DNA of 64,000 nucleotides, taken from an uncultured bacterium (GTDB taxonomy: Bacteria; Patescibacteriota; Microgenomatia; UBA1400; PJMF01). The stretch spans positions 10,388 to 74,387 of the forward strand of contig CAUUGB010000001.1 in assembly GCA_963544615.1 (NCBI GenBank). Reading direction: 5' to 3'. Positions 21,010 to 55,461 of this stretch are shown piece after piece (within the stretch, counting starts at the first letter, position 1; every line of letters starts with the position of its first letter). The position numbers and the translations under genes were made by a program. The notes beneath the pieces are model-generated. The model was not told the DNA's origin. It saw only the letters and a program-made list of their open reading frames with translations, and did not search any database.

Positions 21010-21085
21010 GGTGCACTCGGCGGGAATTGAACCCACAACCTACGGCTCCGCAAGCCGGCGCTCTATCCAATTGAGCTACGAGTGC
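21010..21085 (-). tRNA. tRNA-Arg (anticodon read as GCG). The 3' CC is encoded; the terminal A is not.
   Basis: Manual cloverleaf. Acceptor stem GCACTCG/CGAGTGC (7 bp). D-stem GCTC/GAGC. Anticodon stem CCGGC/GCCGT with loop TTGCGGA (U33, G37). Variable loop AGGTT. T-stem GTGGG/CCCGC with T-loop TTCAATT. Discriminator A. It resembles bacterial tRNA-Arg overall. Confidence 0.8.
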
Positions 21086-21354: not shown

Positions 21355-22824
21355 ATGAAAAAATTTGCCCTGGCTTTAGTGAGTGTATTGTGGTTGGCAG
21401 GAGTGAGTGCGGCAGCAGTGCCGGAATGGCATTTGCTCAATGCAGTGGCGACTCAAATGGATGTCACTGTTGACGGACAGCATTATCACACAGAGGTTGC
21501 TGATTCCGAGGTGGCGCTGGTAAATGACTTGATGGTGCAAGTGAGTGATTTTTTACACACTCACACTGCTGGTAGGGTGAAGTTTAGTTTTACTAACTGC
21601 AACACTAGTGAGCCCATTACCAGCCTGTCTGAAGTAGATTACGGGAATTTTGATGTACTCCCACATCCCGCTGATAAGAATTATTATCCTAAAATTAAGA
21701 ACTTACCTGAGGTTATTCGGCGGCAAATGGTTAGCCACGATGTCATGATAGCAACAGTCAGAATGCCGGAAAAGCTGGCGAGTAATTGGCGAGGGTTGGG
21801 ATCTACGGGATATGCAGTCATTAGACTGTTTGATTTTTCGCAGTATCAAAGTGTTGGTTTTGAGCAACTTCATCTGCAATTTTATTTACACGAACTCATG
21901 CATGGTTTTTTGAACTATTTTGCCACGATTGGGTATCAAATTCCCAATATTCATCGTCCCGCTGATTATGGTTATGCCAGTGAGATGGAACTATTTGCTG
22001 CCATTCTCTCTGGGGAAATGCGTGATCCGGCGACAGGGCACAATTTGGGGATTACTGCAGCCATGTGGGCTAAATCTCCTTTATCTCAAATAATTGTGCC
22101 ACCCACTATCGAGTTGGATCTCTCTGATTTACATTTAGTGGAGGGCAAACTAGTATTGCAAGTGGGACAAGAAGTGCATGCTCAGTTGAAAGCTGTAGTT
22201 AGTCCCGACAATGCTGGTTTAGAGGTGACCTATTTTGATGATCACCAATTGCCCCCCGGTCTGACTTTGAGTGAGCAGGGGCTGTTATCAGGCAGACCCA
22301 CTACAGTGGGTAGGCGTTATGTGAGCGTTACTGCCCAAGCTGGCAATGCAATTGATAGTGCCAGTTTTATTATTGAGGTGCTGCCAGCAACGCCTCATCC
22401 TACCCCCACTCCCACTCCTAGCTTAAAGTTGGATGTGGCTGCTTTAGGGGTAGTCAATGGTCAGCTCACGCTGCAGCCAGGACAGAGAGTGCAAGCACAA
22501 GTGCGTACCAATGCCCCTGCTAGCACGGCGGTTACTTTTACCAGTAGCGGCTGGCCCACGGGATTGGCTTTAAGCTCCACTGGCTGGTTGACTGGCTCTA
22601 GCAGGGCGGTAGGGCAGTGGCCAGTTACCATTATTGCCAGAGCTGCAGGGCAACAAGATACCGCCAGCTTCCAGCTGGTGATTGCAGCAAACAATTCTCC
22701 GGCATTGCCTGACCCTCAGTTGCCTGGTACTGGCGGTGATGAGGGTGGCGGTGGTTGTCAGGTGGCAGGCTTAACTTATTTGCTGCTGCCATTGTGGTGG
22801 TTGAGGCGGCAAAAAAAGTGTTAA
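21355..22824 (+). CDS. Cell-wall-anchored (LPGTG) zinc-metalloprotease-like protein with two Ig-like (He_PIG-type) repeats.
   Basis: Signal peptide. HELMHGF (HExxH) motif. Two roughly 95-aa repeats (PPGLTLSEQGLLSGRPTTVGRRYVSVTA... / PTGLALSSTGWLTGSSRAVGQWPVTI...) resembling putative Ig domains. C-terminal LPGTG + hydrophobic span + RRQKK sorting signal. Confidence 0.7.
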   Translation: MKKFALALVSVLWLAGVSAAAVPEWHLLNAVATQMDVTVDGQHYHTEVADSEVALVNDLMVQVSDFLHTHTAGRVKFSFTNCNTSEPITSLSEVDYGNFDVLPHPADKNYYPKIKNLPEVIRRQMVSHDVMIATVRMPEKLASNWRGLGSTGYAVIRLFDFSQYQSVGFEQLHLQFYLHELMHGFLNYFATIGYQIPNIHRPADYGYASEMELFAAILSGEMRDPATGHNLGITAAMWAKSPLSQIIVPPTIELDLSDLHLVEGKLVLQVGQEVHAQLKAVVSPDNAGLEVTYFDDHQLPPGLTLSEQGLLSGRPTTVGRRYVSVTAQAGNAIDSASFIIEVLPATPHPTPTPTPSLKLDVAALGVVNGQLTLQPGQRVQAQVRTNAPASTAVTFTSSGWPTGLALSSTGWLTGSSRAVGQWPVTIIARAAGQQDTASFQLVIAANNSPALPDPQLPGTGGDEGGGGCQVAGLTYLLLPLWWLRRQKKC

Positions 22825-22839
22825 AGAATTATATTTTGA

Positions 22840-22863
22840 CCCCGGGTGACCCCGGGGTTTTTT
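22840..22863 (+). terminator. Rho-independent terminator
   Basis: CCCCGGG-tgac-CCCGGGG followed by T6, 16 nt after the stop. Confidence 0.8.
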
Positions 22864-23044: not shown

Positions 23045-24493
23045 ATGGCAAGCATGTCTCAAGTACCAATTAAGTCACAGCTGTCAGCTTTTTGGCAGCG
23101 GTTAACCGCCAGTCCGCAAAAACAACGCCGACTATTGGGGGCGGGGTTGCTGCTGGTTTTTTTTGTTTTGGGTTTTTGGGCTTGGTGGTTATGGCGTCAT
23201 CCCGCGAGTGTTTACACCAAACCTCCCAAAAAAGTTGCTACCGAGCGTTTGGCGCAAGTTTTACCTGCTCCCAGTCCGGTGCCAGCCGATAATCAGGCGC
23301 TGCAAGCTGCCGCTTTAATTTTGGCGCATTTTAATCCTCAAGCTGGCAACCCAGGAGTGGTAGACCAGCGTGGTTTTTATGGTGATGAGCGCTATTGCCA
23401 TAATCAGTTTAGTCGCCAAGGTCAACCGGTTTGTAAAGCGGTGTTACATGACATCATGGGTGATTACGAGAGTATGGCCAGTTTTCGCTCTACAGTGCAA
23501 CTGCTTTGGGCACGCTACCGTTATTATTTAGCCAGCAATAATCGCCAGCAGTTGACTCAGCTTCTTTTAGATGTGGATAATTTAGTGAGTAATGTGCTCG
23601 ACTCACCCTCTTATGTACTACAAAATCAAGACTTTAATTGTTTGTTGATGAGAGAGCTATATTTTTCTCCGGTTTTAGATGCTGAAACTAAAGAAAAAGC
23701 TCGCCGTCTTTGCCAAGAATCTCACCCCGAAATGCATCCGGAAAGTTTGTGGGAATATGACCAATATCATCATCCACTTTACTATATTGACGATTTTCTC
23801 CAAGTGGCTATGGTTGACTCCACTCGTCATATTCCAGATTCAGAGAGGGTTACTTACCGTGCTGCCAGTTTGCAGCAAGAGCTTAATCAGGATTTGCTAC
23901 TAATTGCTAACGGGGGAGTGCTACCAGCCACCACTTATGCTCGGATTAGCAGTGAAGATAAATTAATGTTTTTACGCCTAGAAGCTAATGCGGCGCTTGA
24001 TTATTTAGCCCAGAGCGAAATTAATCAAGCTGACGAGTTGCGCTATGAGCAAAGTATGGTGGAGTATTTGCTCACCAGCAAAGAAACACTCAATTGGTTG
24101 CTGACTACCCCCAATGCTTGGTATAGTGATGGCGCTTGTTTGGTGGGAGTGAATATTCGCGCTTACTTAGAGCGCTTTGCTCCTAATTTGCTTAGTGAAA
24201 CTCAATTAGCCGTGCTGCGGAGTAAATTGCCTTTTGTTGATGAAGCCAGCGAGCTGGATTGTGTTTTAGCTGGGAGCATTCTTTTCCCCCAAGATCCTAA
24301 TGTTACCTATCAATTGCACAAGCGTCTTAAATCACTCGCCGCCAGTTATCAGCCAGGTTTACCTTTAGGAGATTTTTTACATCAAAGTGCTGGTGATAAA
24401 CAGCCCAGTTATTATTACCCCACGGTACGTAATGCTTATTACGCCGGTTTATTAAGTGAATATGCCCAACAACAAAATTATGCCCAAAAATAA
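23045..24493 (+). CDS. Membrane-anchored hypothetical protein (N-terminal TM helix, large extracytoplasmic alpha-helical domain).
   Basis: TM helix LLGAGLLLVFFVLGFWAWWLW. It overlaps the start of the giant Cys-rich protein gene, suggesting co-transcription. Confidence 0.5.
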   Translation: MASMSQVPIKSQLSAFWQRLTASPQKQRRLLGAGLLLVFFVLGFWAWWLWRHPASVYTKPPKKVATERLAQVLPAPSPVPADNQALQAAALILAHFNPQAGNPGVVDQRGFYGDERYCHNQFSRQGQPVCKAVLHDIMGDYESMASFRSTVQLLWARYRYYLASNNRQQLTQLLLDVDNLVSNVLDSPSYVLQNQDFNCLLMRELYFSPVLDAETKEKARRLCQESHPEMHPESLWEYDQYHHPLYYIDDFLQVAMVDSTRHIPDSERVTYRAASLQQELNQDLLLIANGGVLPATTYARISSEDKLMFLRLEANAALDYLAQSEINQADELRYEQSMVEYLLTSKETLNWLLTTPNAWYSDGACLVGVNIRAYLERFAPNLLSETQLAVLRSKLPFVDEASELDCVLAGSILFPQDPNVTYQLHKRLKSLAASYQPGLPLGDFLHQSAGDKQPSYYYPTVRNAYYAGLLSEYAQQQNYAQK

Positions 24494-27400
24494 ATTCTTC
24501 TTCACAGTTTTATTAACTCTTACTTTAATTTTGGGGGGAATGGTACTAACTGTTAAGGCTCAACCAACTCCTACCCCTACTGACAAAACTCCATTGCAAA
24601 TTATCAGCAGTGAACAATTTCTCCGACGATTAGAAGAAAATTTGCCAAAAGATACTAAACCGGTTTATGTTTTTTCTGGTGCATATCAGCGGTTGTTTTA
24701 TCGACCCGCAAATAAAAATTGGAGTGGTAACTTGCTGACTATTCCCACTGATGTCCCGGCTCCTTATAAAGGTGGTCAAGATGTGCGTTCAGGAGTAATT
24801 TTGCCTTTAATTCAAAATTTAATCGACAATATTGACCCTGCCACTGATATTGGTGCTAATACTAATGTGTCTTTGCCGGCCTCAGTCACTATCCCTATTA
24901 TTAAAGGTTTAAAAAATGTGTGCGACCAGCAATGCGATGACAGTCGCTATAATAGCAATTTCCAGCTTTGTTTTCTACCTCGATGCACTGGTGGTGGTAA
25001 AGATGAGCCTCCTAAAAAATGTACTTGTGCCAGTAATTTAAGATGGAAAAAAGCTACCGATGTTTGTTACAATCAAACCATGCCCGGTGGCACTGATGGC
25101 TTGTGTGTTTTTAAAGATGAGGAATTAAAAGAGCGCTGTCGTGAATATGAATGTAGTGTTACCGAAGAATGCCCTACTGATGAAAATGGCAATAAAATTG
25201 TGGGTGATGATTGTGATCTCATGCCATATAATAAGAATTTTTCTAGTGAATCATTTAATGAAAATAATGCTTTTATGAATAAATATCGGTCATATAGCTG
25301 GATTAAAGATGCCTATGAGAATTGCTATACAGACAATTTTGTTCCTAGTAATTATCAGCCTACCTGGTGTGATGATAGTGTGTCTGTTTCAGATCCACCC
25401 GAGAATGGAGCTACTGATCCACCTGAAAATAGTGATGATTACAAAAAAGATTTTGCTTGCAATAACGATGATCGGCGTATGATGTGTGTTCATGATAATA
25501 AGGCGATGCCAGCTTTAACTAAAGCGACAGTTGATTGTTTGGCTGCTTTGAAAACCATGTTTTATGATATTGGTTCGCTTGGTGATTTATATAAAGCAAT
25601 TCTTGACATTATGAATGAAATGCTTGATGAATTAGAAAACTATATTTTACCGCCGGTGGTGATTGGTGGCGGGTATAAATGGAGCAAAACTCCAGAAGAA
25701 ACTAACATAATTGATGAGCCGGGCTTTTGTTTGAATAAGAATGTGAGTACTTGTTCTTGTGGACATATTTTACCTTTTAATGGTAGCACCATTACCAATT
25801 TGGGTTTGCGCCGTAAACTTTTGTCTTATGGAGTGGCGGATGCGAATAAATACTGTGTTAATACCGAAGGCGACCCGGCTTGTACCTATAGTTATAGTTG
25901 GGATACCGAAGAGGTGGAGGATAAACCGGTCAGCCGTAATACCAAAGTAGGGATGAGAAACATTTATGCCAGTCGGGCTTCTTATCCGGGTTGGGTAACT
26001 CATAAGGGTGGCTATGTGCATGGAGCCACTTGTGCTAAAAGACCCAAGGGCTCTTCGATTGGTGGTAGTGAATCCGGGAGTAAAACTCGCACTTTTGAGG
26101 TAACTGATAAAGAATTTTTCTTTTTACAAGCGCGCTATTTTGCCGATAAAATTGCCAGAGGAGAGAGCGACGAGCTCTCTTATGGTGGTTGTGATGATCG
26201 CTCTAATATTTTATACAATCATGCCACCGCCGCTCATTGCCAGCGCAAGGGTAAGCGAGGTATTAAATGTCGTTCGGGGTCTCGGCGGCGCTTTAGTAGT
26301 TATGCTTGCGATATTAATGGGGGAGTAATTAATCAGTGCAAAAATGGCAGAGTGGATGGCGGGCGTAACACTATTTGTCAGGTTTGTGGGCCTATTTATT
26401 GTGGTGAGCATGGTCTTTATTCCGATACCAATACAGTGCGCAAAAATTTTAAACTTGGTAATAGTCCTACCAGGCATTATAAATTTTATCGTTATTATCA
26501 TCCTCAGGGTTCCACCAAATATGGTGGTGGTGATGAGGGTGGTGGGGGTACCATAGATGGCTCGGAGATTTTTTACAGCTATAGCAGTCAAATTTGTTTG
26601 GGGGAGCGCTGTAATAGTAGCTACAATGACGCTGTTTTTACTCCACGTGATTTACCAGCTAATTCTGGTCAGGTTTTTGATGACCGCACTTGTCCCGAAG
26701 GAGAGATTGTTGACCCTTGCAAGCAGAGAGCCATTGCTAATAATTGGGGTGGGCACCGGCTGTGTTATGAGAGCTGTTGTGTGAGTAGTGATGGCAGCAA
26801 ATGTGATCGTTTTCCCCATGATTGCCCTCCGGGTGAGTGTTGTGAAGATGACGATAATAGTTGTCGTCAGCCAGCTGATAATTATCATTATGGTGGCGAC
26901 TTATGTTCTATTGGGGATGACACGAGTAAAACAGTTTCCGGAGTAGCAATTCCGGCTGCAGATGCCGAAAAATATGCTAACTACCAGTGTAATGTGGCAG
27001 GTACTTATGACACTCATTATCCAAAAAGCGTGGCTGAAAGTTATACATTCCCACTAAAGGAAAAAAGTGCTTGCTATTTTTGTGGTTGCGCTCCCATAGA
27101 GGGTAATAGCGGCAAAAGCGGTTGGTGGCCCCGTAATGCCAAAATTAAACATGGTGACCAGTGTTTAACTCCTGAACAGAAATGTGCTGCTGAATTTAAT
27201 CAAGTAAAAAATAACAAGCTAGAAATTGGCTATGATGGTTTAGCCCAAGCTATGGATAGGTCTGATGTTGATAGTCCTGTAACTTTGTTAAAAGGCATTA
27301 CTGGTATGACTAATTTAAGATGTGTGCGGTGCCGCTGTGTTGCCGGAGATGGTATTTGTGATGGGTATTCTGGTGATCCTAACGGGGTTTGTAAGAATTA

Positions 27401-30026
27401 TCCTCAGGGGACACTCGATCCAGATTGTGATCCTTTACTTCCATCACCAGGCCCTGAGTCTTGTGGTCCAAGTAATTGCAAAACACCTGGTGCTTGCTCT
27501 TGTAAAGTAAAACCTGGTTATAACTTAACTGAGTATCCTTATGGTGATGATTATGGTAATCATCCTCAGTGTCGTATTTGCATTTACAAATCCAAACCAA
27601 CTGGTTGTGGTGATGGTATTTGCAGTGGTTTGGAAACTTGTGAAAATTGTTCCCAAGATTGTGGTAAGTGTCCGCAGATGAGTGAGTGTCCCGATGGTTA
27701 TAGTAAGCTGTGCACTGGGGAGGGGTATCCTGTTACTGGTCTTGGAGATTGTAAACGCTGCTATGACCCTAATCACCTTGAGCAGCCTCAACATGGTTGT
27801 CAGGACGATGGTTATTGTAATCCTCTCTGCGAAGAAAAAGATGCGGATTGTGAGCCCGAGACAGCTAAGTATTTAACTAATGACAATGGTTGTCCTTACG
27901 GTTATGGCAAAACAAAAGAGTGTGGTTATGGTGAACGTCATCCTCTTTTAAGTGGCTGCTATGCTTGTGGTTGCGAGAGGCGTAAAAAGAACTTTATAGA
28001 AACCAAAATTGATAATCCACAGCTTTGTGATAAAGATGACAATCATGAGGAGGATAACTGTGACATTCATATGAAAGAATTTAGTTGCAGTCCATATGAC
28101 AATCAAAATAATTCTGGTTTACATTGGAAAGTGGTTACCTTAGCGCAGCAGCAGCAAATTTATCGCGATTCCCTCTGTTATGGCTATCAATTTTTTACCA
28201 CTAAAGAAGATAGCAGTGTGGTTACAGTAGGTGTTGATGTCTCTTACTATGATTATCAACAACGTGACGCTTGGATGCTTGATAGTGACGGTAAAGGTTT
28301 TATTTATTCTGACGCTAAAGGTGGTTATCGGCGCTGTCGCCCCGTGCGTATGCCTTATCGCGGTGGTAGCCTTAGCAGTGGCAAAGCTGGTCTGTGCGAA
28401 TATCGCTGTATTCCCGCCATGCATCAAGCCATTGTTTTAAGCTGTAGCGAAATTGATGCTCGTTATCCTCATGAGTACCGGGGTAATCCCAGTGATGAGA
28501 TGGTTTTTATTCCCGATGTTGCCCGCTCGGCTGGTAATAAAGAAGTTTACCTTGGTGGCACTAGTGAGGGCTTGAGTGTGGTGCCGCGTAGTAATGACGC
28601 ACGCTGTGGTCGCTATTATCGCGTCTACCCCAAACATATCGATAAGTCTGAGACTAATGATATTAACGGTGATGGCAAGGTTGACTGGCAAGATGGTAAC
28701 GCTGCCGCCTCTTATTTATTTACTGATTGGTGGCAAGTGGGTGGTAATGCTTACGGTAACGCTGGTGTGAGCAATTACGGCGAAAAAACGGCTTTTGTGG
28801 CAGAGCCGGCAGAAGTAAAAAATCTCAATCCCGCTACTGCCAAACTAGTAGGGAAAATGAAATCTTATCAGTATGCACTAAATGATGGGAGCTGTATTAC
28901 CAGTGGTGGGGAAATTAAGACCGGTGATTGGCAGCCGCCAACTGCTTATAAGCCTTCATCAGGCGCTGGTTTGCAGGTAACAGGTAGTGGCAATCCCACC
29001 ACCCTCATTAATAAACGCACTTATCGTCCATCTAATCAAACTGGCTTGGCGGCTAAAGGTGGTTACCAGTTTAGCTATCAAAAGCAGCGTGCTTTAGACT
29101 TTGAGTATTACCGTACTCTACTTGATTATGAAAAAATACCTAAGAATGGTAGTAGTAGAGTTCAAGTGAAATTAGCCGATGGTAATATAGAGGAAACTTT
29201 TGTCTACCGTTTTTTTGGCAGAAATGTTAAATTCAATGATGATATTAAGCCCATTGTAGATAGTATTGGTGTAGATAAAAAAGTAGTTATCTTTGTAGAA
29301 AGTCAGGGTGCTGAAACAAGTAATGTCGGCGGTAACTTTATTCTCGATGCTAATATGGCAAGTTATGATCCCAATGGTTATTTAGCAGTGATTGCTCAAA
29401 AAGACTTTATTATTGAGCCTCAAGTTGGTTATCATTTAAATACCCAAAATGGCCAAGGTTGTGGTATTAATACTGTCACATTATGCACTCCCTCATTTAA
29501 TGGGGTAGTTATTGCGCGAGGTTTAGTGATGAAGCGCGAGGGTGACGGCAGCGATCCCAGCAGTAACCCTACGTTGGTGGATGGTCTTTTTAATCCCCAG
29601 CTTACTTGTGATAAACGCTTAGTGCTTAAAGGCGCTTATGCTTTTTGGGGCAAGCAACCGGTGGTCTTTACCCGGACTCTTTTGGGCTGTGGTTTGAAAA
29701 AAGGTCCTTTCTCCAATGACAAGGCGAGCTTAAATGTTCACAATGCTCGAGGTAATGCTCATGGAGATGACTTTGAGGGCAGGCGACCAGATGTAAAGCT
29801 TAATAACAAGAATGCCTATGATGATTATTGTCGCACTGGCACAGTTAGGCGCAATGGTAATGGCTACTATAACTATCACTTGAATTGGCCAGATAGTCAG
29901 GGTGGGATGTACAATAACTACAATCGCTTGATTTCTGCTACTCAGTTGGTGGTTAATCAACAGTTAATTAATTTAACTCCTGCTTGGATGAGACAAAACC
30001 TCACCACTCGTTTGGAGGTGCGCTAA
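24480..30026 (+). CDS. Giant secreted cysteine-rich protein (about 1850 aa), a putative surface/adhesion protein.
   Basis: Signal peptide MPKNKFFFTVLLTLTLILGGMVLTVKA. Alternative starts are GTG 24456 and ATG 24462. The N-terminal roughly 1150 aa are extremely Cys-rich with CGDGIC...E.C..C..DCG-type modules and Gly/Asp/Tyr-rich spacers. A dockerin/EF-hand-like loop DINGDGKVDWQD is present. The C-terminal roughly 650 aa are Cys-poor and Gly/Asn/Tyr-rich. Confidence 0.7.
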   Translation: MPKNKFFFTVLLTLTLILGGMVLTVKAQPTPTPTDKTPLQIISSEQFLRRLEENLPKDTKPVYVFSGAYQRLFYRPANKNWSGNLLTIPTDVPAPYKGGQDVRSGVILPLIQNLIDNIDPATDIGANTNVSLPASVTIPIIKGLKNVCDQQCDDSRYNSNFQLCFLPRCTGGGKDEPPKKCTCASNLRWKKATDVCYNQTMPGGTDGLCVFKDEELKERCREYECSVTEECPTDENGNKIVGDDCDLMPYNKNFSSESFNENNAFMNKYRSYSWIKDAYENCYTDNFVPSNYQPTWCDDSVSVSDPPENGATDPPENSDDYKKDFACNNDDRRMMCVHDNKAMPALTKATVDCLAALKTMFYDIGSLGDLYKAILDIMNEMLDELENYILPPVVIGGGYKWSKTPEETNIIDEPGFCLNKNVSTCSCGHILPFNGSTITNLGLRRKLLSYGVADANKYCVNTEGDPACTYSYSWDTEEVEDKPVSRNTKVGMRNIYASRASYPGWVTHKGGYVHGATCAKRPKGSSIGGSESGSKTRTFEVTDKEFFFLQARYFADKIARGESDELSYGGCDDRSNILYNHATAAHCQRKGKRGIKCRSGSRRRFSSYACDINGGVINQCKNGRVDGGRNTICQVCGPIYCGEHGLYSDTNTVRKNFKLGNSPTRHYKFYRYYHPQGSTKYGGGDEGGGGTIDGSEIFYSYSSQICLGERCNSSYNDAVFTPRDLPANSGQVFDDRTCPEGEIVDPCKQRAIANNWGGHRLCYESCCVSSDGSKCDRFPHDCPPGECCEDDDNSCRQPADNYHYGGDLCSIGDDTSKTVSGVAIPAADAEKYANYQCNVAGTYDTHYPKSVAESYTFPLKEKSACYFCGCAPIEGNSGKSGWWPRNAKIKHGDQCLTPEQKCAAEFNQVKNNKLEIGYDGLAQAMDRSDVDSPVTLLKGITGMTNLRCVRCRCVAGDGICDGYSGDPNGVCKNYPQGTLDPDCDPLLPSPGPESCGPSNCKTPGACSCKVKPGYNLTEYPYGDDYGNHPQCRICIYKSKPTGCGDGICSGLETCENCSQDCGKCPQMSECPDGYSKLCTGEGYPVTGLGDCKRCYDPNHLEQPQHGCQDDGYCNPLCEEKDADCEPETAKYLTNDNGCPYGYGKTKECGYGERHPLLSGCYACGCERRKKNFIETKIDNPQLCDKDDNHEEDNCDIHMKEFSCSPYDNQNNSGLHWKVVTLAQQQQIYRDSLCYGYQFFTTKEDSSVVTVGVDVSYYDYQQRDAWMLDSDGKGFIYSDAKGGYRRCRPVRMPYRGGSLSSGKAGLCEYRCIPAMHQAIVLSCSEIDARYPHEYRGNPSDEMVFIPDVARSAGNKEVYLGGTSEGLSVVPRSNDARCGRYYRVYPKHIDKSETNDINGDGKVDWQDGNAAASYLFTDWWQVGGNAYGNAGVSNYGEKTAFVAEPAEVKNLNPATAKLVGKMKSYQYALNDGSCITSGGEIKTGDWQPPTAYKPSSGAGLQVTGSGNPTTLINKRTYRPSNQTGLAAKGGYQFSYQKQRALDFEYYRTLLDYEKIPKNGSSRVQVKLADGNIEETFVYRFFGRNVKFNDDIKPIVDSIGVDKKVVIFVESQGAETSNVGGNFILDANMASYDPNGYLAVIAQKDFIIEPQVGYHLNTQNGQGCGINTVTLCTPSFNGVVIARGLVMKREGDGSDPSSNPTLVDGLFNPQLTCDKRLVLKGAYAFWGKQPVVFTRTLLGCGLKKGPFSNDKASLNVHNARGNAHGDDFEGRRPDVKLNNKNAYDDYCRTGTVRRNGNGYYNYHLNWPDSQGGMYNNYNRLISATQLVVNQQLINLTPAWMRQNLTTRLEVR

Positions 30027-30044
30027 ATTAAATTACCACTCATC

Positions 30045-31754
30045 TTGAGGCTTATGTCTATTAATGGTCGCTATCAGCAATTTTATTCGCCAAAGATGAA
30101 GCGCCTGGTCTTTCCTCAAGGCAATCTTTATGATTTATTGCAGCAAGCTAATCAGGGGAAAGAGAATGAGTATGCACTTGATTATTTTGGTCAGCGCCTA
30201 ACATATGGTTGGCTTTTTAGTGAAATTGAGCGCTGCACTAGTGCACTTTTAGCACTGGGAATTAAGCAAGGTGAGGTAGTGACTGTTTGCTCACTTTTAA
30301 CGCCGGAAACCCTGGCAGTTTTTTATGCGCTCAATCGCTTAGGTGCAATTAGCGATTGGCTCGATCCGCGCTCTAGCGAGCCAAAAATTATTAAAACCCT
30401 CAAACAAACTAAAAGTAAATTATTAATTATCCTCTCACCATTGGCAAAAGTTTTTGCTAAGGCTTTGTCTAAAAGCAGTTGTCGAGTGGTAATTTTATTA
30501 AATCCTCTCACTCAAGCTGGTCTGCCAAGCAAAGTTTTGGGTACCCTTAAAGGTTTATTTACTCCAGCACCAGCTTTTCCCTCCAAAATTCGCTTACTCA
30601 CTTATAAGCAATTGCTTTTATTAGCCCATAAGCAGCCTGCCCCCAATATTCGTCCACGCCTTCATCAGGGGGCGGCTATTGTACATACTGGTGGCACCAC
30701 TGGGCAGCCTAAAGCAGTTTTGCTCACTAATGAGAGTATTAATGCCGAGGTTACCCAAGTGGCTAATTTTCATTTGCGGTTTAAGCGCCAAGAGCGCTGG
30801 CTCTCTTATTTACCGCCTTTTGTGGTGGTTGGTTTAGTAAATGTGATTCACTTACCCTTAATCTTAGGGATGGAGCTTTGTTTAGTGCCCAACTTTCTTA
30901 CCATGACTTTAGCTCAACAGCTTAAAACTTATCGGCCACATCATATTCCCTGCATTTCGCTGCATTGGCGCGAAATTATCAGCGGTAAAAAGTTGCAAAA
31001 TTTTTCTCTTGATTTTGTTAAAAGTATTATTGTAGGAGGGGACGTTTTTTACCGGGGTATGGAAGAGCGCCTGATTGATTTTTTGCGCGCCCATAATTGC
31101 CATATTGCCCCCACCAAATGTTATGGCTCGAGTGAAAGCTCTTCAGTGGCAGTCGCCGGCTGTAATCATCAACCTTATAATAAATTAGGTAGTGTAGGTA
31201 TTCCTTTACCAGGTAATCAGGTTGCCATTTATGAGGTAGAGAAAAAGCAACTGACTGGTCGAGCTGGAGTGATTGGGGAAATTTGTTTAGCCGGACCGGT
31301 TTTAATGAAAGGCTATTATGCCGATGAAACCGCTAGTAAAAAAAGTCTGCGCACTCATGCGGGTAAGCTGTGGTTGCATACCGGAGACTTAGGTTATTTA
31401 GATGATGATGGAGTATTATTTTTAGCGGGACGCAGTAAGCGGATGATTATTAGACGGGGCTTTAAAATTTATTCTTTAATGATTGAACAATTACTTAATC
31501 AGCAAGAGGAGGTTAAAATTGCTGTGGTGGTCGGTAAACCAGATAAAGCTGATGATGAAGTGCCTTGTGCCCATTTAGTACTGCAAGAAGATTACAGTCA
31601 CCGCCCGGCTGAGGTGGAAAAGAAGCTACGCTTGCTTTGCCAACAGCATTTAAGTGATTATCAAGTGCCGGTGCAATGGTATTTTCACCAGTCTTTACCA
31701 CTAACTGCCAATGGTAAAATAGATTATCGTTTTTTAGAAAACTATCATGAATAA
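30045..31754 (+). CDS. Adenylate-forming enzyme (AMP-dependent synthetase/ligase, acyl-CoA/acyl-AMP ligase family).
   Basis: AMP-binding motif I HTGGTTGQPKAV. Core motifs YGSSESS and HTGDLGYLDDDGVLFLAGRSKRMI. No carrier-protein gene is adjacent. Confidence 0.8.
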   Translation: MRLMSINGRYQQFYSPKMKRLVFPQGNLYDLLQQANQGKENEYALDYFGQRLTYGWLFSEIERCTSALLALGIKQGEVVTVCSLLTPETLAVFYALNRLGAISDWLDPRSSEPKIIKTLKQTKSKLLIILSPLAKVFAKALSKSSCRVVILLNPLTQAGLPSKVLGTLKGLFTPAPAFPSKIRLLTYKQLLLLAHKQPAPNIRPRLHQGAAIVHTGGTTGQPKAVLLTNESINAEVTQVANFHLRFKRQERWLSYLPPFVVVGLVNVIHLPLILGMELCLVPNFLTMTLAQQLKTYRPHHIPCISLHWREIISGKKLQNFSLDFVKSIIVGGDVFYRGMEERLIDFLRAHNCHIAPTKCYGSSESSSVAVAGCNHQPYNKLGSVGIPLPGNQVAIYEVEKKQLTGRAGVIGEICLAGPVLMKGYYADETASKKSLRTHAGKLWLHTGDLGYLDDDGVLFLAGRSKRMIIRRGFKIYSLMIEQLLNQQEEVKIAVVVGKPDKADDEVPCAHLVLQEDYSHRPAEVEKKLRLLCQQHLSDYQVPVQWYFHQSLPLTANGKIDYRFLENYHE

Positions 31755-32982
31755 ACAGTCTCCTACCCCCACTACCACTCAGTCTGCAGGTTTATTGGCA
31801 ATCATGCAAGCTTACAGTTGGAGTGTTTACTTTTTTTGCCTGCTACTTTTAGCGGTGGTTTTTAGTAAAACTTTTTTGGGGGAATATCCTTTTGATGTTA
31901 GTGAAGTTTTAATTGCCATGCACGAATTTAGCGGGGGGTTGCTCAGCAATGGGATAGTTGCTGGGTTTTTGTTTTTAGTTTCTTTAGTACCGATAGCGAT
32001 TATGGCTGCCTTAATTCACTCTCAAGGCAAAAAAATTACCGCTGTCAAGCTTACTTCTGCCAACTGGCGAGTACGGCTTTTTTTAGCGCTCTTGTTAGGG
32101 GGTACTTTTTTACTTCATTTACTGCCCACTTTTTCTTGCGCTAATCCTATGTGTGATTATTTACCGGTGGTGGCCAGTTTTCCTGGTTTGCCTTTGGGGG
32201 TGGCTTTAGCCACCACTGTCGATGGTTGGGCTAGCGCTCAGGGTGGGGTGTGGGCACAGCTAGATTATCGCTTTTTAACTATTCTCCCGAATGCTTTGTT
32301 TTTGTTGGTTCTCTCTTTTTATTTTCTCACTCCTAAAGCCCAGTTGCCGCGCTTAATTCGCTCACGTTTGCTGCTTTGTTTGGGTTTGCTGATACTAGTT
32401 TTAGGTTTGCTGGTTTTTTATCTTTATTACTTGTCGCAAATAGTTTTTACTTTAAGTGATAATGATTTAGCCGATTTATTAAATCAGCACGCTCCAGCGC
32501 AAGTGGTAGAAGATTTTCATTTTCAAATTGGTGATGTCCTCATTCATCGTCCCAAAGAAATTGGTCAAGATTTAGTGACTAAATTAAGTGGTACCAATTT
32601 ATCGCATACCGATACTTATTGCGGTGAGAATGAGTTAATCAATGGCAATGGTGATAATTTTTTTCAAACTGGAGGAATTAATATTGATAAGCTTGAGTGG
32701 CAACAGCGTTATGTGCGTGGTTCATTGCCACTGACGGTAGTTTTACGCCATCCCGATCCGCAGGTAGGAGCACAGTTGTGTGCCAAGCTGCGTCGTGCGG
32801 TTAGTGATCCCAAAATTACTTTTGGGGTAGATTTGCTTAATAAGCGGCAAACTTTTAACTGTTCTAATATGGTGTATTATTATTTATATCCCCAAGCGCC
32901 CAATTTTAATTTAGTCACTCCCGATTTACTGTTTGTCACCATGCTCCAGCATGACTGGCGCTTAGTTAATTGGACTAACTAA
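31747..32982 (+). CDS. Polytopic membrane protein fused to a C-terminal permuted papain-fold (YaeF/YiiX, C92 / LRAT-like) domain.
   Basis: About six TM helices in the first 240 aa. The C-terminal domain carries GDVLIHRP, SHTDTYCG and FNCSNMVYYY. These match the Gly-Asp, His and Cys-Ser motifs in the order typical of YaeF/YiiX permuted NlpC/P60 proteins. It overlaps the adenylating-enzyme gene by 8 nt. Confidence 0.5.
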   Translation: MNKQSPTPTTTQSAGLLAIMQAYSWSVYFFCLLLLAVVFSKTFLGEYPFDVSEVLIAMHEFSGGLLSNGIVAGFLFLVSLVPIAIMAALIHSQGKKITAVKLTSANWRVRLFLALLLGGTFLLHLLPTFSCANPMCDYLPVVASFPGLPLGVALATTVDGWASAQGGVWAQLDYRFLTILPNALFLLVLSFYFLTPKAQLPRLIRSRLLLCLGLLILVLGLLVFYLYYLSQIVFTLSDNDLADLLNQHAPAQVVEDFHFQIGDVLIHRPKEIGQDLVTKLSGTNLSHTDTYCGENELINGNGDNFFQTGGINIDKLEWQQRYVRGSLPLTVVLRHPDPQVGAQLCAKLRRAVSDPKITFGVDLLNKRQTFNCSNMVYYYLYPQAPNFNLVTPDLLFVTMLQHDWRLVNWTN

Positions 32983-33018: not shown

Positions 33019-33906
33019 ATGAAAAAATCTGTATCATCACCGTCAACTAGTTCTGCCAGCGGTTCCTTGTTAGCGGGCAAAAAAAAAGTTAAAAAAGCAG
33101 CCAAAAAAAATCTTTCTAGTTCAACTACTAACACTGACAGCAAAAAAAATCTGCCCCCCAAAAAAAGTGGTCAGCTGTTTTTTTTAGTTTTAGCTTTAGC
33201 ACTTTTGTTTGCAGTGGCTTGGCGGTTGAAAGGGGGGCTAAATTTAACCAAACCCAGTCAACCCAGCACTCCCTCTGCCGATGAGATAGAAAGCTATGAT
33301 ATTTATGAGGTGGAGGCAGAAATCCTTGAGCAAGAGGCCACCCTTTACAATGATTATTTTGCCTTTAGCTACACACTGCCACCTAGTTACGCTGTTTATG
33401 AATGGTGGGAGCATAATTTAGCTAAAGAGCCGGGTGAAACTGGGCGCTTATCTCAGTTTGAGTTTACCAATGAGGATGGTGAGAGAGATAGTGAGAGTAG
33501 CCCCAATAGTGAGCAAAAATTTATTAGTTTTATTGCTTATGGTAATAAGCGCTACTCCCAGCTGGAGGATCATTTTGATGTCATAGTGGACGCAATTAAA
33601 ATTGCCGGCGCAGATAATCAGGAAACTTTTTTAGACCTTTACGAAAAGAATTTAATTTTTGGGCAAAAATTAGCCGAGGACTATTTGTTGGAGAAAAAAA
33701 CTCCCCTGCAGCTTGCTGGTAGAGATTGGGCGCAGCGCCTTTACCAGAGCGTGGGTGATGAGCGACCAATTTATTTGCTCCGTCTTGCCACACCACTTAA
33801 AAATGGTTATTTTTTGGTGATGCAATCTACTTATTGGGCCAACAATCCTCAGGCTTATGAGCAAGTATTAGCTCATTTTGCTCAAAGCATTAAGTTTAGT
33901 GAGTAA
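33019..33906 (+). CDS. Membrane-anchored hypothetical protein with a Lys/Ser-rich cytoplasmic N-terminus.
   Basis: Basic low-complexity N-terminus, one TM helix (LFFLVLALALLFAVAW), then an acidic soluble domain. It precedes the pilin cluster. Confidence 0.45.
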   Translation: MKKSVSSPSTSSASGSLLAGKKKVKKAAKKNLSSSTTNTDSKKNLPPKKSGQLFFLVLALALLFAVAWRLKGGLNLTKPSQPSTPSADEIESYDIYEVEAEILEQEATLYNDYFAFSYTLPPSYAVYEWWEHNLAKEPGETGRLSQFEFTNEDGERDSESSPNSEQKFISFIAYGNKRYSQLEDHFDVIVDAIKIAGADNQETFLDLYEKNLIFGQKLAEDYLLEKKTPLQLAGRDWAQRLYQSVGDERPIYLLRLATPLKNGYFLVMQSTYWANNPQAYEQVLAHFAQSIKFSE

Positions 33907-33952: not shown

Positions 33953-33981
33953 TTGACAAAGGGGTGAATTTTTTCTAAAAT
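33953..33981 (+). promoter_or_regulatory. Consensus-like sigma-70 promoter of the major pilin gene
   Basis: -35 TTGACA, 17-nt spacer, -10 TAAAAT. Confidence 0.6.
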
Positions 33982-34024: not shown

Positions 34025-34609
34025 ATGATTATGCTTAAAAGAAGCGCTGCATTTACACTAATTGAATTAATGGTGGTAGTGGCTATTATTGCTATTTTAT
34101 CTACTATGGGGGTAGCAAATTTTTCCACCGCCATTAAGCGCTCGCGTAATGCGGTGCGGCAGAATGATGTCTTGGCGGTAAGTAAAGGTTTGGAAGCTTG
34201 TTATGATGTAATGAGTGCGAGGTATTTAAATCCAGCAGGTGGTGCAGCCACTGATTGCCATAAACCATATGAAAGCACTATGACCGGCGGTGCTAATGGA
34301 GTGTTTAAAGCAGATAGTAAAGGTGATCAGTCTTGTCAAAATCGTTGTCTCAATCAGGATATAAAGCCCAATATGAATAATCATAATTATACGGCATTAG
34401 TAGGATTGGTTGATAGTGCAGAAAAGTTTGTTATTTGTGCCAAGTTAGAAAACGTTGGCAATGTGGAAAGCATTGGTAACTCTAAAACAGATTTAGCAGC
34501 ATTGCCTAATATTGAGACGGCAATCGAAACATTGTCAAATTCTACTAATAAGTGTGATGCTGGTGGCGGTACCGGTGGGTGCTTTTTCTGCGTTACTTCT
34601 TCACAATAA
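34025..34609 (+). CDS. Type IV pilin (prepilin-type N-terminal cleavage/methylation domain), a candidate major pilin.
   Basis: KRSAA|FTLIELMVVVAIIAIL class III signal with Glu at +5. The C-terminal region has Cys pairs. A strong promoter lies upstream and a strong terminator follows. Confidence 0.8.
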   Translation: MIMLKRSAAFTLIELMVVVAIIAILSTMGVANFSTAIKRSRNAVRQNDVLAVSKGLEACYDVMSARYLNPAGGAATDCHKPYESTMTGGANGVFKADSKGDQSCQNRCLNQDIKPNMNNHNYTALVGLVDSAEKFVICAKLENVGNVESIGNSKTDLAALPNIETAIETLSNSTNKCDAGGGTGGCFFCVTSSQ

Positions 34610-34635
34610 ATTAAATAAATTTAGCTAAAGCATTG

Positions 34636-34661
34636 CCCCCTCGCTAGCGAGGGGGTTTTTC
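34636..34661 (+). terminator. Rho-independent terminator after the first pilin gene
   Basis: CCCCCTCGC-ta-GCGAGGGGG followed by T5. Confidence 0.8.
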
Positions 34662-34697: not shown

Positions 34698-35231
34698 ATG
34701 AAACACAAGCAAGCCTTCAGTTTAATTGAATTAATGGTGGTTATTAGTATTATTGCGGTTTTGGCAGCCATGGGGGTGGCTAATTTTGCCACTGCAATTA
34801 AAAAATCTCGCGACTCGGTGCGCAAAAGTGAACTGGCTGAATTAACTCAAGCGCTGATGATGTTTCGGGCAGATTGGGGTTCGTATCCATATCGCTATGG
34901 TATGGATGCAGTAAGGCTGACATCAACAGCCATTTTAAATTACGAAGAGCCAGCCAGTAATCCTGTTAAAACACATGAACTAGTTCCTGATTATATCCGC
35001 TCCATGCCTACCGATGAAGCACGTGTTAGTGAGAGTGAGCAATATACTTATAAGTGCATCACGCCAAAAGAGGTCATCATTGATGGTGTAACTTATTGGC
35101 GCTGTGTTGATTTTAGCGTTTGCGCTTATTTAGAAGTGCCGCAGGTGAGTGGGGCAAATGCTAAAGATGGGATAGGTACTCCTTGTCTCAATCCCAACGA
35201 TTGCAAATGGTTTTGTATGTATAGTCCGTAA
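34698..35231 (+). CDS. Type IV pilin (prepilin-type)
   Basis: KQA|FSLIELMVVISIIAVLAAMG N-terminal domain with Glu at +5. C-terminal Cys residues are present. Confidence 0.8.
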   Translation: MKHKQAFSLIELMVVISIIAVLAAMGVANFATAIKKSRDSVRKSELAELTQALMMFRADWGSYPYRYGMDAVRLTSTAILNYEEPASNPVKTHELVPDYIRSMPTDEARVSESEQYTYKCITPKEVIIDGVTYWRCVDFSVCAYLEVPQVSGANAKDGIGTPCLNPNDCKWFCMYSP

Positions 35232-35236
35232 AGTTC

Positions 35237-36178
35237 ATGCCTCAGTCATTTTGCCGCTATCCTCGCTCTGCTTTCACCTTAATTGAGATTTTAATTGTGG
35301 CAGTGATTTTTAGTATTCTTTCACTGGCAGTGGGGCGGTTTTTAATTACTTTCTTAAATTTAAAACTTAGTGCCGAGACAATTCAGCGCATCCGCCAAGA
35401 AGGCAATTATGCCCTCGACCAAATTGATTATTTACTCCGCAGTGGCTTAACCATGCCCGATGTGTGTGTAGGCAGAATTCGCCCGGCTAATCCTCCCTCC
35501 GGCTTTGATTTGCATCACGATCTTCAAGCAGTCAAAGATAATCCTGATCCTAACAACATCATGCCTGCGCCATGTGTTGAGGAGCCAAAAGATCCTGATC
35601 CTCTTAGTGTCATAACCAAAGAACCTATTCACTGTGAACTTAATCCCACTCCTCAGCCCGGCTTCAGCTACTCATCTTATCACTCCAAAATTTATGACAC
35701 TTGCCAAGAAAAATGTCATGTTTATGATCAACTGCGCACCAACACTCAGGGGTTAGATCAGGTTTATTTTGTGCGCAATTTAGTGGCATTAGCAAATTGT
35801 GATGGCAGTGGTGGTAGTAGTGGATGCCGGCAGCCGTCCTCACCTGATGAGGTATCCAGTTTATATTTATTTCGCAGTTTGGCGGCTGACCGGCGTCATG
35901 ACGATTTTGACGACTTTGCCCGTAGTCCTCAGGTGCAAAGAATTCCCTTAACTAATTGGCGCACTGGAGTTGGGGGTGAACCCTTTTCAGTAAATAATTT
36001 GCGCTTTTATTGTTTTTTTGATTATTTTGCCAACAGCTATGTGGTACACACTTCTTTTGACATCACTTATCAGCGCCAATCTTTAAGTGGTCGGTTGCAA
36101 CAAGTTGGCACCAAGCGAATTAATGAGCGCTTTGAGCGCTTGAGTGTGGTGCGCAATCCTTACCCTTTTGAATACTAA
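35237..36178 (+). CDS. Prepilin-type minor pilin / pseudopilin (313 aa)
   Basis: RSA|FTLIEILIVAVIFSIL N-terminal methylation-domain motif. It has a large divergent C-terminal domain. Confidence 0.65.
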   Translation: MPQSFCRYPRSAFTLIEILIVAVIFSILSLAVGRFLITFLNLKLSAETIQRIRQEGNYALDQIDYLLRSGLTMPDVCVGRIRPANPPSGFDLHHDLQAVKDNPDPNNIMPAPCVEEPKDPDPLSVITKEPIHCELNPTPQPGFSYSSYHSKIYDTCQEKCHVYDQLRTNTQGLDQVYFVRNLVALANCDGSGGSSGCRQPSSPDEVSSLYLFRSLAADRRHDDFDDFARSPQVQRIPLTNWRTGVGGEPFSVNNLRFYCFFDYFANSYVVHTSFDITYQRQSLSGRLQQVGTKRINERFERLSVVRNPYPFEY

Positions 36179-36253: not shown

Positions 36254-36934
36254 TTATGGAGAAGTCAGACAAGAGCCGTTATAAGGTAATTCATTGGTAA
36301 TGTCTTGGCTAAATTTTTGAGCCACCTGCACTTGTTTATTGTTGCCTTTATAATCTTGATATTGCACGGTTACCACCACGGTAACTTCTTGGGCAGTACC
36401 TGACCCTGACATAAATTTTAAGCGAACTTGGTATTGACCGTGATAACCCAGCTTAAAGTTAGGGTTATTGTCAACCTTGGGTTGACCGCAAATGGTGTCG
36501 TTAACATTACCCCTTGTCTGCCTGCTCCATTCGGTTGTATCAGTAAAAAAGTCTAGCACCGGTTTCTCTGCATACAGACCCGCTGGTCGATTAAGAATAT
36601 CGTAAGCGGGTAATTGATAGGGAAACTCACATTTAATTTCATCTGCCCATCCACTGTTAGGAGTAGTATACTCATTGCTTTTTCCGGCACATTGTTCCCA
36701 AAGCCGCTGGTAAAATTGCCACCACAACATCCCATCACGAGCGGTGCGCCAGCGCTCCAGGCAAGAATTGGCTTGGTCGACTGCCTTAGCCCGCAGCCGG
36801 GCGTCAATAATTACCCGCTGGGTATAAAAAATATTACTGGCTAAAGCTATGAGGACAAAAGAAATCAAGGTCACCGCCACTAGTATTTCAATCAGTGATA
36901 AAGCGCTTTGGTGTGAAGGAGTGGTTTTTAGCAT
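36254..36934 (-). CDS. Prepilin-type minor pilin (PilV/FimT-like)
   Basis: HQSA|LSLIEILVAVTLISFVL N-terminal motif with Glu at +5. Confidence 0.65.
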   Translation of the reverse strand: MLKTTPSHQSALSLIEILVAVTLISFVLIALASNIFYTQRVIIDARLRAKAVDQANSCLERWRTARDGMLWWQFYQRLWEQCAGKSNEYTTPNSGWADEIKCEFPYQLPAYDILNRPAGLYAEKPVLDFFTDTTEWSRQTRGNVNDTICGQPKVDNNPNFKLGYHGQYQVRLKFMSGSGTAQEVTVVVTVQYQDYKGNNKQVQVAQKFSQDITNELPYNGSCLTSP

Positions 36935-37593
36935 GTTTCTGTCTTACATCTCTCTATATTCTCACAAAAACAGCCGTGCGTAAAGGTGCCATTTTCTAGT
37001 AAAAATACATAATAGAGGTCGCCATCAGTTAAAATAAAACGAGCGTTAGCGTGTTTATGGTCAGTTTTCTCCTTTTCTGTGACGGGAGCAGATCCATTTT
37101 TCACATAAATTAAACCATATAAAGAATCAAAAACAAGCGTGTTGCCACCATTCTCATTGTGAATACTTAAGCCCACATCTTGAGGTAGGGTAAAATAGTG
37201 AGTTTTGTTAGTTTTCTCTTCATTAGCACCATCACGGTCTTTTTTACTGTAAAAATAAACTTTGGGTTCCAATTTACTACTCGTGTTACCGCTGTCAGTT
37301 GGAGGCAAGCCAGCAATCTGCCAATGACTCAATTTACACTCGCCTTTGGCGATAGTTGCTTCGTCGGCTGAACTGCAAGATTCTTCACCCCCACCACGAT
37401 TACCCAGACGAGCTTTTTGAGCCATACTGTTAAAATAAACAATTAATTCTCTGGCGGTATTTTCCAGTCGCTGGCGGTCGCGTACTTTTAGATAGTTAAC
37501 CAGTCCCACGGTGAGCAAAAAAACCACAATGGCAACTACGGCTAAAACTTCCACTAAGCTGTACCCTGCCTTCTTGCCCTGCATGAGCATCAT
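36928..37593 (-). CDS. Prepilin-type minor pilin
   Basis: KKAG|YSLVEVLAVVAIVVFLL N-terminal motif with Glu at +5. It overlaps the downstream pilin gene by 7 nt. Confidence 0.65.
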   Translation of the reverse strand: MMLMQGKKAGYSLVEVLAVVAIVVFLLTVGLVNYLKVRDRQRLENTARELIVYFNSMAQKARLGNRGGGEESCSSADEATIAKGECKLSHWQIAGLPPTDSGNTSSKLEPKVYFYSKKDRDGANEEKTNKTHYFTLPQDVGLSIHNENGGNTLVFDSLYGLIYVKNGSAPVTEKEKTDHKHANARFILTDGDLYYVFLLENGTFTHGCFCENIERCKTETC

Positions 37594-38750: not shown

Positions 38751-38754
38751 ATTT

Positions 38755-54740: not shown

Positions 54741-54750
54741 ATTAGGGGGC

Positions 54751-55461
54751 ATGAAAATAGCGAGTTGGTTTTATGGGGGAGTGTTTTTATTAGGTTTAGT
54801 CATGATTGCGATTGGTAGCGCCCCTTTTGTGTGTGGCTGGTGGCATAATGCTTTTGAGGCAGGAGGTAGGGTTGTTTATCCACTTGATCTTAATGCCTAT
54901 TTACAAAAGTTAGCTAATACTCCCCAAATTATTGCTGATTTCTCCAGTGTCCAATTTTATCGTGAGCAATTGGTAGATTATGATAAAATTGAAAATTGGT
55001 TTGGTCATAAAGCAGTCACAGTCGCCAACAGTAGTGAAGAAAGTTATCTGTTAAATATTCCCAAATTAGAAATTGCTAATGCTTTAGTGCAAGTGGGTGG
55101 GGGTGATATTAATCACCATTTATTGCACTTTAATCCTGAAGTGAAAATCGGCGGTTTAGGGGCAGCGGTAATTTTTGGTCACTCGACTCTAAGACAGTTC
55201 TACAATCCTAAAGAATCAAATAAAAATCGCTATAAATCAATATTTTCTACTATTATGACTTTGCAAAATGGCGATGAAATTCGCCTCAACTTGGGAGAGA
55301 TTGTTTATGTTTATACTGTGGTGGGTAAAAAAGAAGTTCAGCCTGATGATGATGAAATTCTCTCTCAAGATTTAAGTAAGCGGCAAATTAAATTAATTAC
55401 TTGCGTACCTGAGGGTACTTTTTTACGTCGGGGGATTGTGACCGCAGAGCTCAAGCTATGA
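54751..55461 (+). CDS. Sortase (cysteine transpeptidase)
   Basis: N-terminal TM anchor. Conserved His (VIFGHSTL), active-site TLxTC-like IKLITCVPEG, and a downstream Arg (FLRRGIV). The RBS AGGGGG lies upstream. The ORF track starts at 54709 within the upstream gene; the ATG at 54751 is preferred. Confidence 0.7.
   Translation: MKIASWFYGGVFLLGLVMIAIGSAPFVCGWWHNAFEAGGRVVYPLDLNAYLQKLANTPQIIADFSSVQFYREQLVDYDKIENWFGHKAVTVANSSEESYLLNIPKLEIANALVQVGGGDINHHLLHFNPEVKIGGLGAAVIFGHSTLRQFYNPKESNKNRYKSIFSTIMTLQNGDEIRLNLGEIVYVYTVVGKKEVQPDDDEILSQDLSKRQIKLITCVPEGTFLRRGIVTAELKL

Follow-up and report, generated by a model that had tools for sequence, protein, structure and literature searches.

A large share of bacterial diversity belongs to the Patescibacteria. 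Members brought into culture all live attached to host cells, and, type IV pili aside, few proteins for this attachment have been identified (PMC10633639, PMC12206443); epibiotic growth requires these pili together with several adhesins (PMC10633639, PMC12206443). A candidate adhesin associated with pili, the saccharibacterial PilX2, has a non-canonical signal peptide and was described as pilin-like, with a beta-propeller of the RCC1 type at its C-terminus (PMC12206443). Here, we analysed a 64,000-nucleotide stretch of DNA from an uncultured patescibacterium (contig CAUUGB010000001.1; the whole stretch is called the window in the following), in which a giant gene at positions 24480-30026 of the forward strand encodes a Cys-rich protein of 1848 amino acids (aa), preceded directly by the gene of a membrane protein, its partner. 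By analogy, the giant protein seems closest in its working to large non-pilin adhesins such as PilY1/PilC, yet it fails the sequence tests for PilY1/PilC as well as for dockerins.

Like the PilY1/PilC proteins (PF05567), the giant protein is large, carries a Sec signal instead of a prepilin signal and joins a variable N-terminal to a conserved C-terminal part, the latter with one short Asp/Asn-rich loop of the Ca2+ type, and pilin genes are found nearby. It differs from them in showing no sequence similarity, in containing far more Cys, in that the pilin genes seemingly form separate transcription units and the relatives of the giant do not lie beside pilin genes, and in having a dedicated membrane partner, which is lacking for PilY1. 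The C-terminal domain of PilY1/PilC proteins folds as a seven-bladed beta-propeller, and that of P. aeruginosa PilY1 is deposited as PDB 3HX6. With PilX2 and other adhesins of Patescibacteria, the giant protein shares the organism group, the presumed need for host attachment and a non-canonical (non-PilD) signal peptide, whereas, compared to PilX2, it displays neither a pilin helix nor RCC1 or any other Pfam family.

A two-part protein and its membrane partner

The giant gene occupies a single uninterrupted open frame (24456-30026, forward strand), and its start at ATG 24480, giving 1848 aa, is also the one used in the gene calls of the orthologue contigs and in the database entry P0001. The orthologue family comprises seven proteins including the giant itself, among 5.8 billion searched, and a profile search added none; all seven are full length (1757-1858 aa), 48-82% identical and collinear. 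Ka/Ks values, calculated for five pairs after Nei-Gojobori, were between 0.1 and 0.5 in each of nine segments, and purifying selection acts on every segment of the giant gene. Since six orthologues are collinear and Ka/Ks is low all along the gene, the open reading frame (ORF) is not a frameshift fusion of several genes, a possibility that had been raised in a preliminary description of the sequence. A scan of the contigs of GTDB species-representative genomes found no relatives of the giant.

Ks differs several-fold between segments in a pattern that is specific to each pair of strains (giant gene against contigs L007, L008, and L009). Between P0001 and P0003, Ks was 1.12 for aa 148-400 and 0.28 for aa 761-947, compared with 0.27 and 0.74 for the same segments between P0001 and P0002. 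Such a mosaic suggests recombination between strains along the giant gene. Behind the signal peptide, the variable N-terminal region (aa 29-400; 24564-25679, forward strand), which is part of this Ks mosaic, retains only 14-22% invariant columns and is devoid of Cys in aa 29-147. It is followed by the best-conserved orphan core (aa 401-760; 25680-26759) with 46-72% invariant columns, whose homologues are confined to the seven orthologues.

At the other end of the protein, aa 1305-1848 (about 545 aa; 28392-30023) form a conserved C-terminal domain (CTD), delimited by alignments and a local hidden Markov model (HMM) check. When a profile of aa 1196-1848 was run exhaustively with HMMER against 1.84 billion representative proteins, this domain was revealed in 13 further, smaller, secreted Cys-rich proteins (E 1e-38 to 1e-4, profile positions 214-564), the tally of this one round. 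These relatives are 131-837 aa long; in the complete ones, a signal peptide is followed by a Cys-rich N-terminal stretch that varies in length and then by the CTD, which aligns with aa ~1305-1848 of the giant. The preliminary description had taken this part for a beta-rich lectin- or toxin-like region; no lectin or toxin family was matched, and the region turned out to be a conserved, undescribed domain of smaller secreted proteins.

In the giant, the CTD displays the motifs C.EI..YP.E, F.PD, RCG.YY, WWQ..GN.Y, AGL, D..YY..L, VIFVE, GYLA.I, FN...CD.RL.L.G.Y.FWG, F.R.L.GCG and Y.NYN, with P.WMRQ....RLE.x at the exact C-terminus. Throughout the family, the order of motifs is C.EI..YP.E, F.PD, RCG.YY, WWQ..GN.Y, AGL, VVFVEGDL, GYLAFIV and QGV.IA, followed by FN...CD.[KR]L.L.G...W, F.R.F.GCG and Y.NYN...T.I.YRPD...P.WM[KR]Q....RLE.x, the last again at the exact C-terminus. 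Proteins were counted as CTD proteins if they matched the profile and ended in P.WM[KR][QE]....R[LF]E.x, as the giant does. Ten positions are invariant in the family (I1638, G1650, C1661, N1705, C1710, D1711, G1718, W1723, R1732, and C1737) and two are nearly so (R1844 and E1846). The family-wide tail covers aa 1811-1848 (29910-30023) and ends in ...TPAWMRQNLTTRLEVR in the giant. An HMM search with aa 1-1195 of the giant found no similarity to the N-terminal regions of the relatives, so its N-terminal part is considered an orphan confined to the seven orthologues. As judged from these comparisons, the giant is a two-part protein, in which a lineage-specific, non-repetitive, Cys-dense N-terminal part of about 1270 aa is joined to a shared CTD.

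The partner gene (23045-24493, forward strand) encodes a 482-aa single-pass membrane protein with a transmembrane segment at about aa 33-52, its bulk predicted to lie outside the cell, and conserved Cys. Its stop overlaps the start of the giant gene by 14 nt. For three remote relatives, P0018, P0017, and P0009, pairwise comparison identified a partner homologue directly upstream (E values of 3e-41, 9e-49, and 3e-24), and, by a local HMM, one lies directly upstream of the CTD gene in all nine contexts with enough upstream DNA; alongside the window, the contexts covered are the six orthologue contigs and contigs L010, L013, and L014. The two genes are separated by a start/stop overlap or a gap of 0-12 nt. 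By the searches made here, partner and CTD protein are an undescribed gene pair. A scan of metagenome contigs with the CTD alignment yielded three short contigs, all duplicates of known contexts. The assembly GCA_964466205.1 (contigs L013 and L014) harbours at least two paralogous pairs of partner and CTD protein (those of P0009 and P0017), so the gene pair can be multi-copy.

The giant protein itself has no match in Pfam (E ≤ 1), NCBIfam (E ≤ 0.1), PHROGs or the PDB sequences (E ≤ 1). The CTD family profile did not match PDB even at E ≤ 10, and a tblastn search of the CTD against a phage collection, made with a phage origin in mind, gave no match. Among the databases covered, the giant thus stands outside every described family. 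A search of the literature for giant Cys-rich proteins of Patescibacteria found nothing specific. As a kind, large surface proteins that are secreted and rich in Cys are nothing new for ultrasmall bacteria; genomes of Patescibacteria commonly encode orphan proteins of this sort.

Cysteines, export and the calcium-type loop

A Sec-type signal peptide, MPKNKFFFTVLLTLTLILGGMVLTVKA followed by Q, was read from aa 1-28 (24480-24563), and a Sec-type signal peptide is present in 7/7 orthologues despite their divergence. The prepilin motif G/A-F-T-L-I-E is absent from the giant, and no prepilin motif was seen in any orthologue. These signal peptides, like the membrane topologies given here, were assigned by eye without a predictor; on this reading the giant protein is extracellular.

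The 96 Cys of the giant correspond to 5.2% of its residues, compared with an average of 1.18% over the remaining 47 window ORFs that reach 150 aa or more (binomial P ~3e-32). None is found in aa 1-147 (0%), 84 lie in aa 148-1203 (8.0%) and 12 in aa 1204-1848 (1.9%). A Cys density above 5% had been noted for the first ~1150 aa, and indeed residues 1-1150 contain 78 Cys (6.8%); both Cys-rich peptides quoted as examples were located, at aa 1043-1065 and 1031-1048. Other parts of that description did not hold. CGDGIC, put forward as a recurring motif, is present a single time (DG[IY]C three times), and the spacings considered special are not enriched, with eight CxxC against 6.6 expected by chance, and CC even depleted (two against 6.7); CxC, with six observed against a shuffle expectation of 6.5, is at chance level. 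The last ~650 aa, called nearly Cys-free, contain 13 Cys (2.0%), which is the background level, and all 13 are invariant among the orthologues, three of them across the wider domain family. Richness in G/N/Y/D is no trait of the C-terminal part, since the contents are nearly equal, with 9.9/6.5/5.8/8.4% in aa 148-1203 and 10.4/7.6/6.4/6.5% in aa 1204-1848. The antisense ORFs had been dismissed as artefacts of composition, rightly so, because their number (12 with 60 aa or more) agrees with the 13.8 +/- 2.6 found in the codon-shuffled gene.

The densest Cys stretch (aa 948-1165; 27321-27974, forward strand) comprises three loosely alike (G)DG[IY]C mini-modules at aa 956-982, 1044-1072, and 1106-1144, whose mutual similarity is weak (self-search E 0.01-0.06). 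No significant internal repeats were detected in the giant by protein self-comparison (best E 0.01), Tandem Repeats Finder or a direct-repeat search of the DNA. Likewise, the domain scan of Pfam and NCBIfam, proposed as a way to find Cys-rich repeat families, gave no EGF-like, TIGR02232 myxo_disulf_rpt or similar match.

Even at 48% identity, the orthologues retain 86 of the 96 Cys without exception, and six gains or losses came as pairs as opposed to one unpaired change (position 353). Paired losses affect 809 and 895 in P0004, 995 and 1006 in P0002 and P0004, and 1043 and 1057 in P0006, while 963 and 987 as well as 1559 and 1576 were gained in P0005-7; Cys 1165 is present together with 1183/1189 only in P0001-4. 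Invariance and pairwise gain and loss lend good indirect support to disulfides, and the giant protein is very probably disulfide-bonded. Of the disulfide-knotted extracellular repeats envisaged at first, the extracellular location and the disulfides therefore find support in the signal peptides and in the conserved, paired Cys, whereas the repeats were not found. Five pilins encoded in the window are also enriched in Cys (2.2-4.1% against an ORF average of 1.2%).

A single candidate for a Ca2+-binding loop resembling those of EF-hand, dockerin and FG-GAP proteins was identified by pattern match at aa 1394-1405 (DINGDGKVDWQD; 28659-28694, forward strand). The pattern D-x-[DN]-x-[DN]-G-x-x-D occurs exactly once in the 1848 aa (DINGDGKVD, aa 1394-1402), and 7/7 orthologues have D or N at the loop positions 1, 3, 5, 9, and 12. 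The loop is part of a clade-specific insertion between the RCGRYY and WWQ motifs, which is missing from most CTD relatives. D or N at these five positions of a 12-residue loop is a feature shared with type I dockerins (PF00404), EF-hands, FG-GAP, and VCBS, and DINGDGKVDWQD agrees at 9/12 positions with the loop consensus of type I dockerins. A dockerin, however, comprises two tandem F-hand segments of ~22 residues, each with a Ca2+ loop, and the giant has one. At E ≤ 1, Pfam gave no match to Dockerin_1, FG-GAP or VCBS in the giant, and no cohesin was matched among the scanned ORFs of the 64-kb window. The single dockerin-like Ca2+ loop of the preliminary description is hence present as a loop, and its identity as a dockerin, which would have called for two F-hand-like loops and a match to PF00404, was rejected. 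The D-x-N-x-D-x-x-x-D loop also equals the pattern of the PilY1 Ca2+ site; as far as the giant CTD is concerned, the PilY1-type pattern D-x-[DN]-x-D-x-x-x-D is a pattern match only, located in the clade-specific insertion.

Possible roles of the giant protein

The reading that we consider best, at a probability of roughly 45%, is that of a surface-tethered adhesin-like protein, the CTD of which is held by the membrane partner and the N-terminal part displayed for attachment. The protein would be exported via Sec and would fold outside the cell with about 48 disulfides. Its CTD, with the invariant extreme C-terminus, would dock on the extracellular part of the partner, possibly via the tail, and so be tethered to the surface of a cell assumed to lack an outer membrane. 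The variable, recombining N-terminal part would face outward as an adhesin or as a module for host recognition, in attachment to a host or substrate, and Ca2+ bound by the DINGDGKVD loop may stabilise the clade-specific insertion in the CTD. Such a model fits the need of cultivated Patescibacteria for pili and several adhesins in epibiotic growth. Strongly conserved, secreted and invariably paired with its membrane partner, the giant is a tangible candidate for the host-attachment interface, and the shared CTD may serve as a handle to find related proteins in other genomes. More tentatively, and with clearly less confidence, partner and CTD protein could represent an unrecognised surface-display or attachment system of Patescibacteria, independent of sortases and pilins, in which a conserved docking domain at the C-terminus would keep a freely evolving, disulfide-knitted N-terminal part on the cell, with the giant as its most expanded member and host-recognition determinant. 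As it stands, the giant is a useful annotation lead and no surprise, and it has revealed no new mechanism yet.

Several points weigh against a tethered adhesin. No known adhesin domain was detected in the giant in Pfam, NCBIfam or PHROGs, and the partner, for which Pfam and PDB gave nothing above noise, has no recognisable domain. The AlphaFold2 models, built on 7-sequence alignments, were unusable, with a mean pLDDT of 32.0 for aa 1-1195 and 30.9 for aa 1196-1848. The giant has an even number of Cys (96), whereas of the six orthologues (94, 95, 91, 97, 95, and 97) all but one have an odd number. The remote CTD relatives lie on short contigs. Finally, the CTD as the conserved part could equally be the functional head, i.e., an enzyme, a toxin or a ligand binder, with the N-terminal part as its stalk.

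The main rival is a type IV pilus tip adhesin of the PilY1/PilC kind, loaded by minor pilins, with the Ca2+ loop controlling pilus dynamics or binding. It would explain why the giant has a Sec and not a prepilin signal, and it agrees with the loop pattern, which is that of PilY1. Five prepilin-like genes lie 4-7.6 kb downstream of the giant gene. All of them show N_methyl matches, the fifth below threshold; the first three are encoded on the forward strand (34025-34609, 34698-35231, and 35237-36178) and the other two on the reverse strand (36254-36934 and 36928-37593). In PilX2, there is even a precedent from the Candidate Phyla Radiation (PMC12206443). Nevertheless, the giant shows no match to PF05567 even at E ≤ 1 and none to PDB, and its Ca2+-type loop belongs to a clade-specific insertion.

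The genomic context seems to speak against a pilus tip as well. PilY1/PilC genes belong to the minor-pilin operon; here, the pilin genes begin 4 kb downstream of the giant, behind three unrelated genes, and have strong promoter-like sites of their own and a terminator-like one. A sigma-70-like promoter (11/12) was located before the first pilin gene (33953-33981, forward strand) and a strong terminator after it (34635-34656), with further strong promoter-like sites serving the other pilin units; all promoter and terminator sites given here come from pattern scans and are consensus matches only. The promoter at 33953-33981 suggests that transcription of the pilins is independent of the giant gene. 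The order of giant gene, three genes, and five pilin genes is identical in all six orthologue contigs, but the order of the flanking housekeeping genes (DnaG, UbiA, and SpoIID) is equally conserved, so the shared order stems from the collinearity of these genomes rather than from a functional link. Moreover, no pilin gene was found within ~3.5 kb downstream of the remote relatives P0018 and P0015. Without a PilY1 family match and with relatives that lack adjacent pilin genes, a role at the pilus tip is not favoured, and we regard it as unlikely. A strong promoter and terminator of its own are what one would expect if the first pilin is the major one and is expressed at a high level.

Somewhat less likely still is a secreted enzyme or effector, in which the CTD would be a catalytic or toxin domain of the beta-helix type acting on the host envelope, the N-terminal part a stalk, and the partner a factor for export, maturation or immunity. 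The CTD as the conserved part would suit this reading, with N1705, D1711, and R1732 as invariant polar residues and R1844 and E1846 nearly so. Its segment VVFVEGDL...GYLAFIV...IQGVYIA has the look of a beta-solenoid. On this segment fall sub-threshold matches to the uncharacterised domain DUF7305 (PF23981) in 3/15 members of the CTD family, best with 18 bits (P0009, E 0.0029) against a cut-off of 27 bits, and to Bactofilin in 1/15 (E 0.19). The likeness to DUF7305 extends over VFVEGD...GYLAFIV...QGVYIA, with all scores below the cut-off; the giant itself has none of these matches, and a literature search gave nothing specific on DUF7305. No catalytic family was found in Pfam, NCBIfam, PHROGs or PDB. 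Furthermore, polymorphic toxins usually vary at the C-terminus, whereas here it is the N-terminus that varies.

A structural component of the envelope, for example of the S-layer type and anchored by the partner, in which the giant and its smaller relatives would build up the cell surface layer, appears improbable. Secretion, stabilisation by disulfides and a membrane partner would be compatible with it, as would the fact that a single genome can encode paralogous relatives (P0009 and P0017 in GCA_964466205.1). A core layer would, however, hardly be expected to show such a narrow orphan distribution and so fast-varying an N-terminal region, and Pfam revealed no S-layer domains. The model originally proposed, with disulfide-knotted repeats and a beta-rich lectin- or toxin-like domain attached via dockerin and cohesin, can draw on the high and conserved Cys density and on the 9/12 agreement of the loop, yet its repeat and dockerin parts are largely refuted by the absence of protein and DNA repeats, CxxC and CxC at chance level, one loop without PF00404, no cohesin among the neighbours and no lectin or toxin family, which makes it very improbable.

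Neighbouring genes and further features of the window

The window is part of an ordinary bacterial chromosome, encoding SecDF, FtsK, DnaG, RNase Y, FtsEX, TIM, and others. Its FtsK is 65% identical to that of a metagenome-assembled genome (MAG) named 'Patescibacteria group bacterium' and 40% identical to that of a Peribacteria MAG.

The transcription unit of the giant appears to be bounded upstream by a strong terminator-like hairpin before the partner gene (22838-22859, forward strand). Downstream of the giant follow, all on the forward strand, an AMP-binding enzyme of the acyl- or aminoacyl-adenylate-forming type (30045-31754, Pfam), a polytopic 411-aa membrane protein that ends in a soluble domain and lacks a Pfam match (31747-32982), and a 295-aa orphan ORF (33019-33906), with gaps of 18 nt, an 8-nt overlap and 36 nt. 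Between the partner (23045) and 33906 no convincing intergenic terminator was found, and weak matches within genes were as in shuffled sequence; the three downstream genes are probably co-transcribed with the giant. All three are absent beside the remote CTD relatives. The AMP-binding enzyme is translationally coupled to the 411-aa protein by the 8-nt overlap, and it is conceivable that the two modify a surface molecule. An impression by eye that the 411-aa protein may have a permuted NlpC/P60-like domain found no support in Pfam at E ≤ 1.

Upstream of the partner, 21355-22824 encodes a 489-aa secreted protein with two tandem repeats of ~95 aa and a C-terminal GGGC...LLLPLWWLRRQKKC tail, which is reminiscent of C-terminal sorting signals (Synerg-CTERM at E 0.032, short of the cut-off). 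In the more distant orthologue contigs L001 and L002, the same slot is occupied by 315- and 277-aa genes of different annotation, one with a Trypan_PARP match. Judged by gene length and annotation, this may be a variable slot for surface proteins.

Beside the pilin cluster, adjacent 7TM_transglut and ATP-grasp genes (ATPgrasp_ST/TupA-type; 37707-40050) are present in all longer orthologue contigs. At the edge of the window, a truncated ORF (9-566) shows a weak T2SSM/PilO-like match (E 9e-4, below the cut-off), and genes for pilus assembly may be located immediately before the window. Where a 708-aa ORF without a Pfam match ends, a sortase gene (54709-55461) overlaps it (both within 52614-55461), and together with a protein of the CAP/cysteine-rich secretory family (56175-56996) this gene adds further surface-protein machinery. 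In most bacteria, CGN codons are read through an ACG anticodon (inosine); the sole tRNA gene in the 64 kb (21010-21085, reverse strand) encodes a tRNA-Arg with the anticodon GCG.

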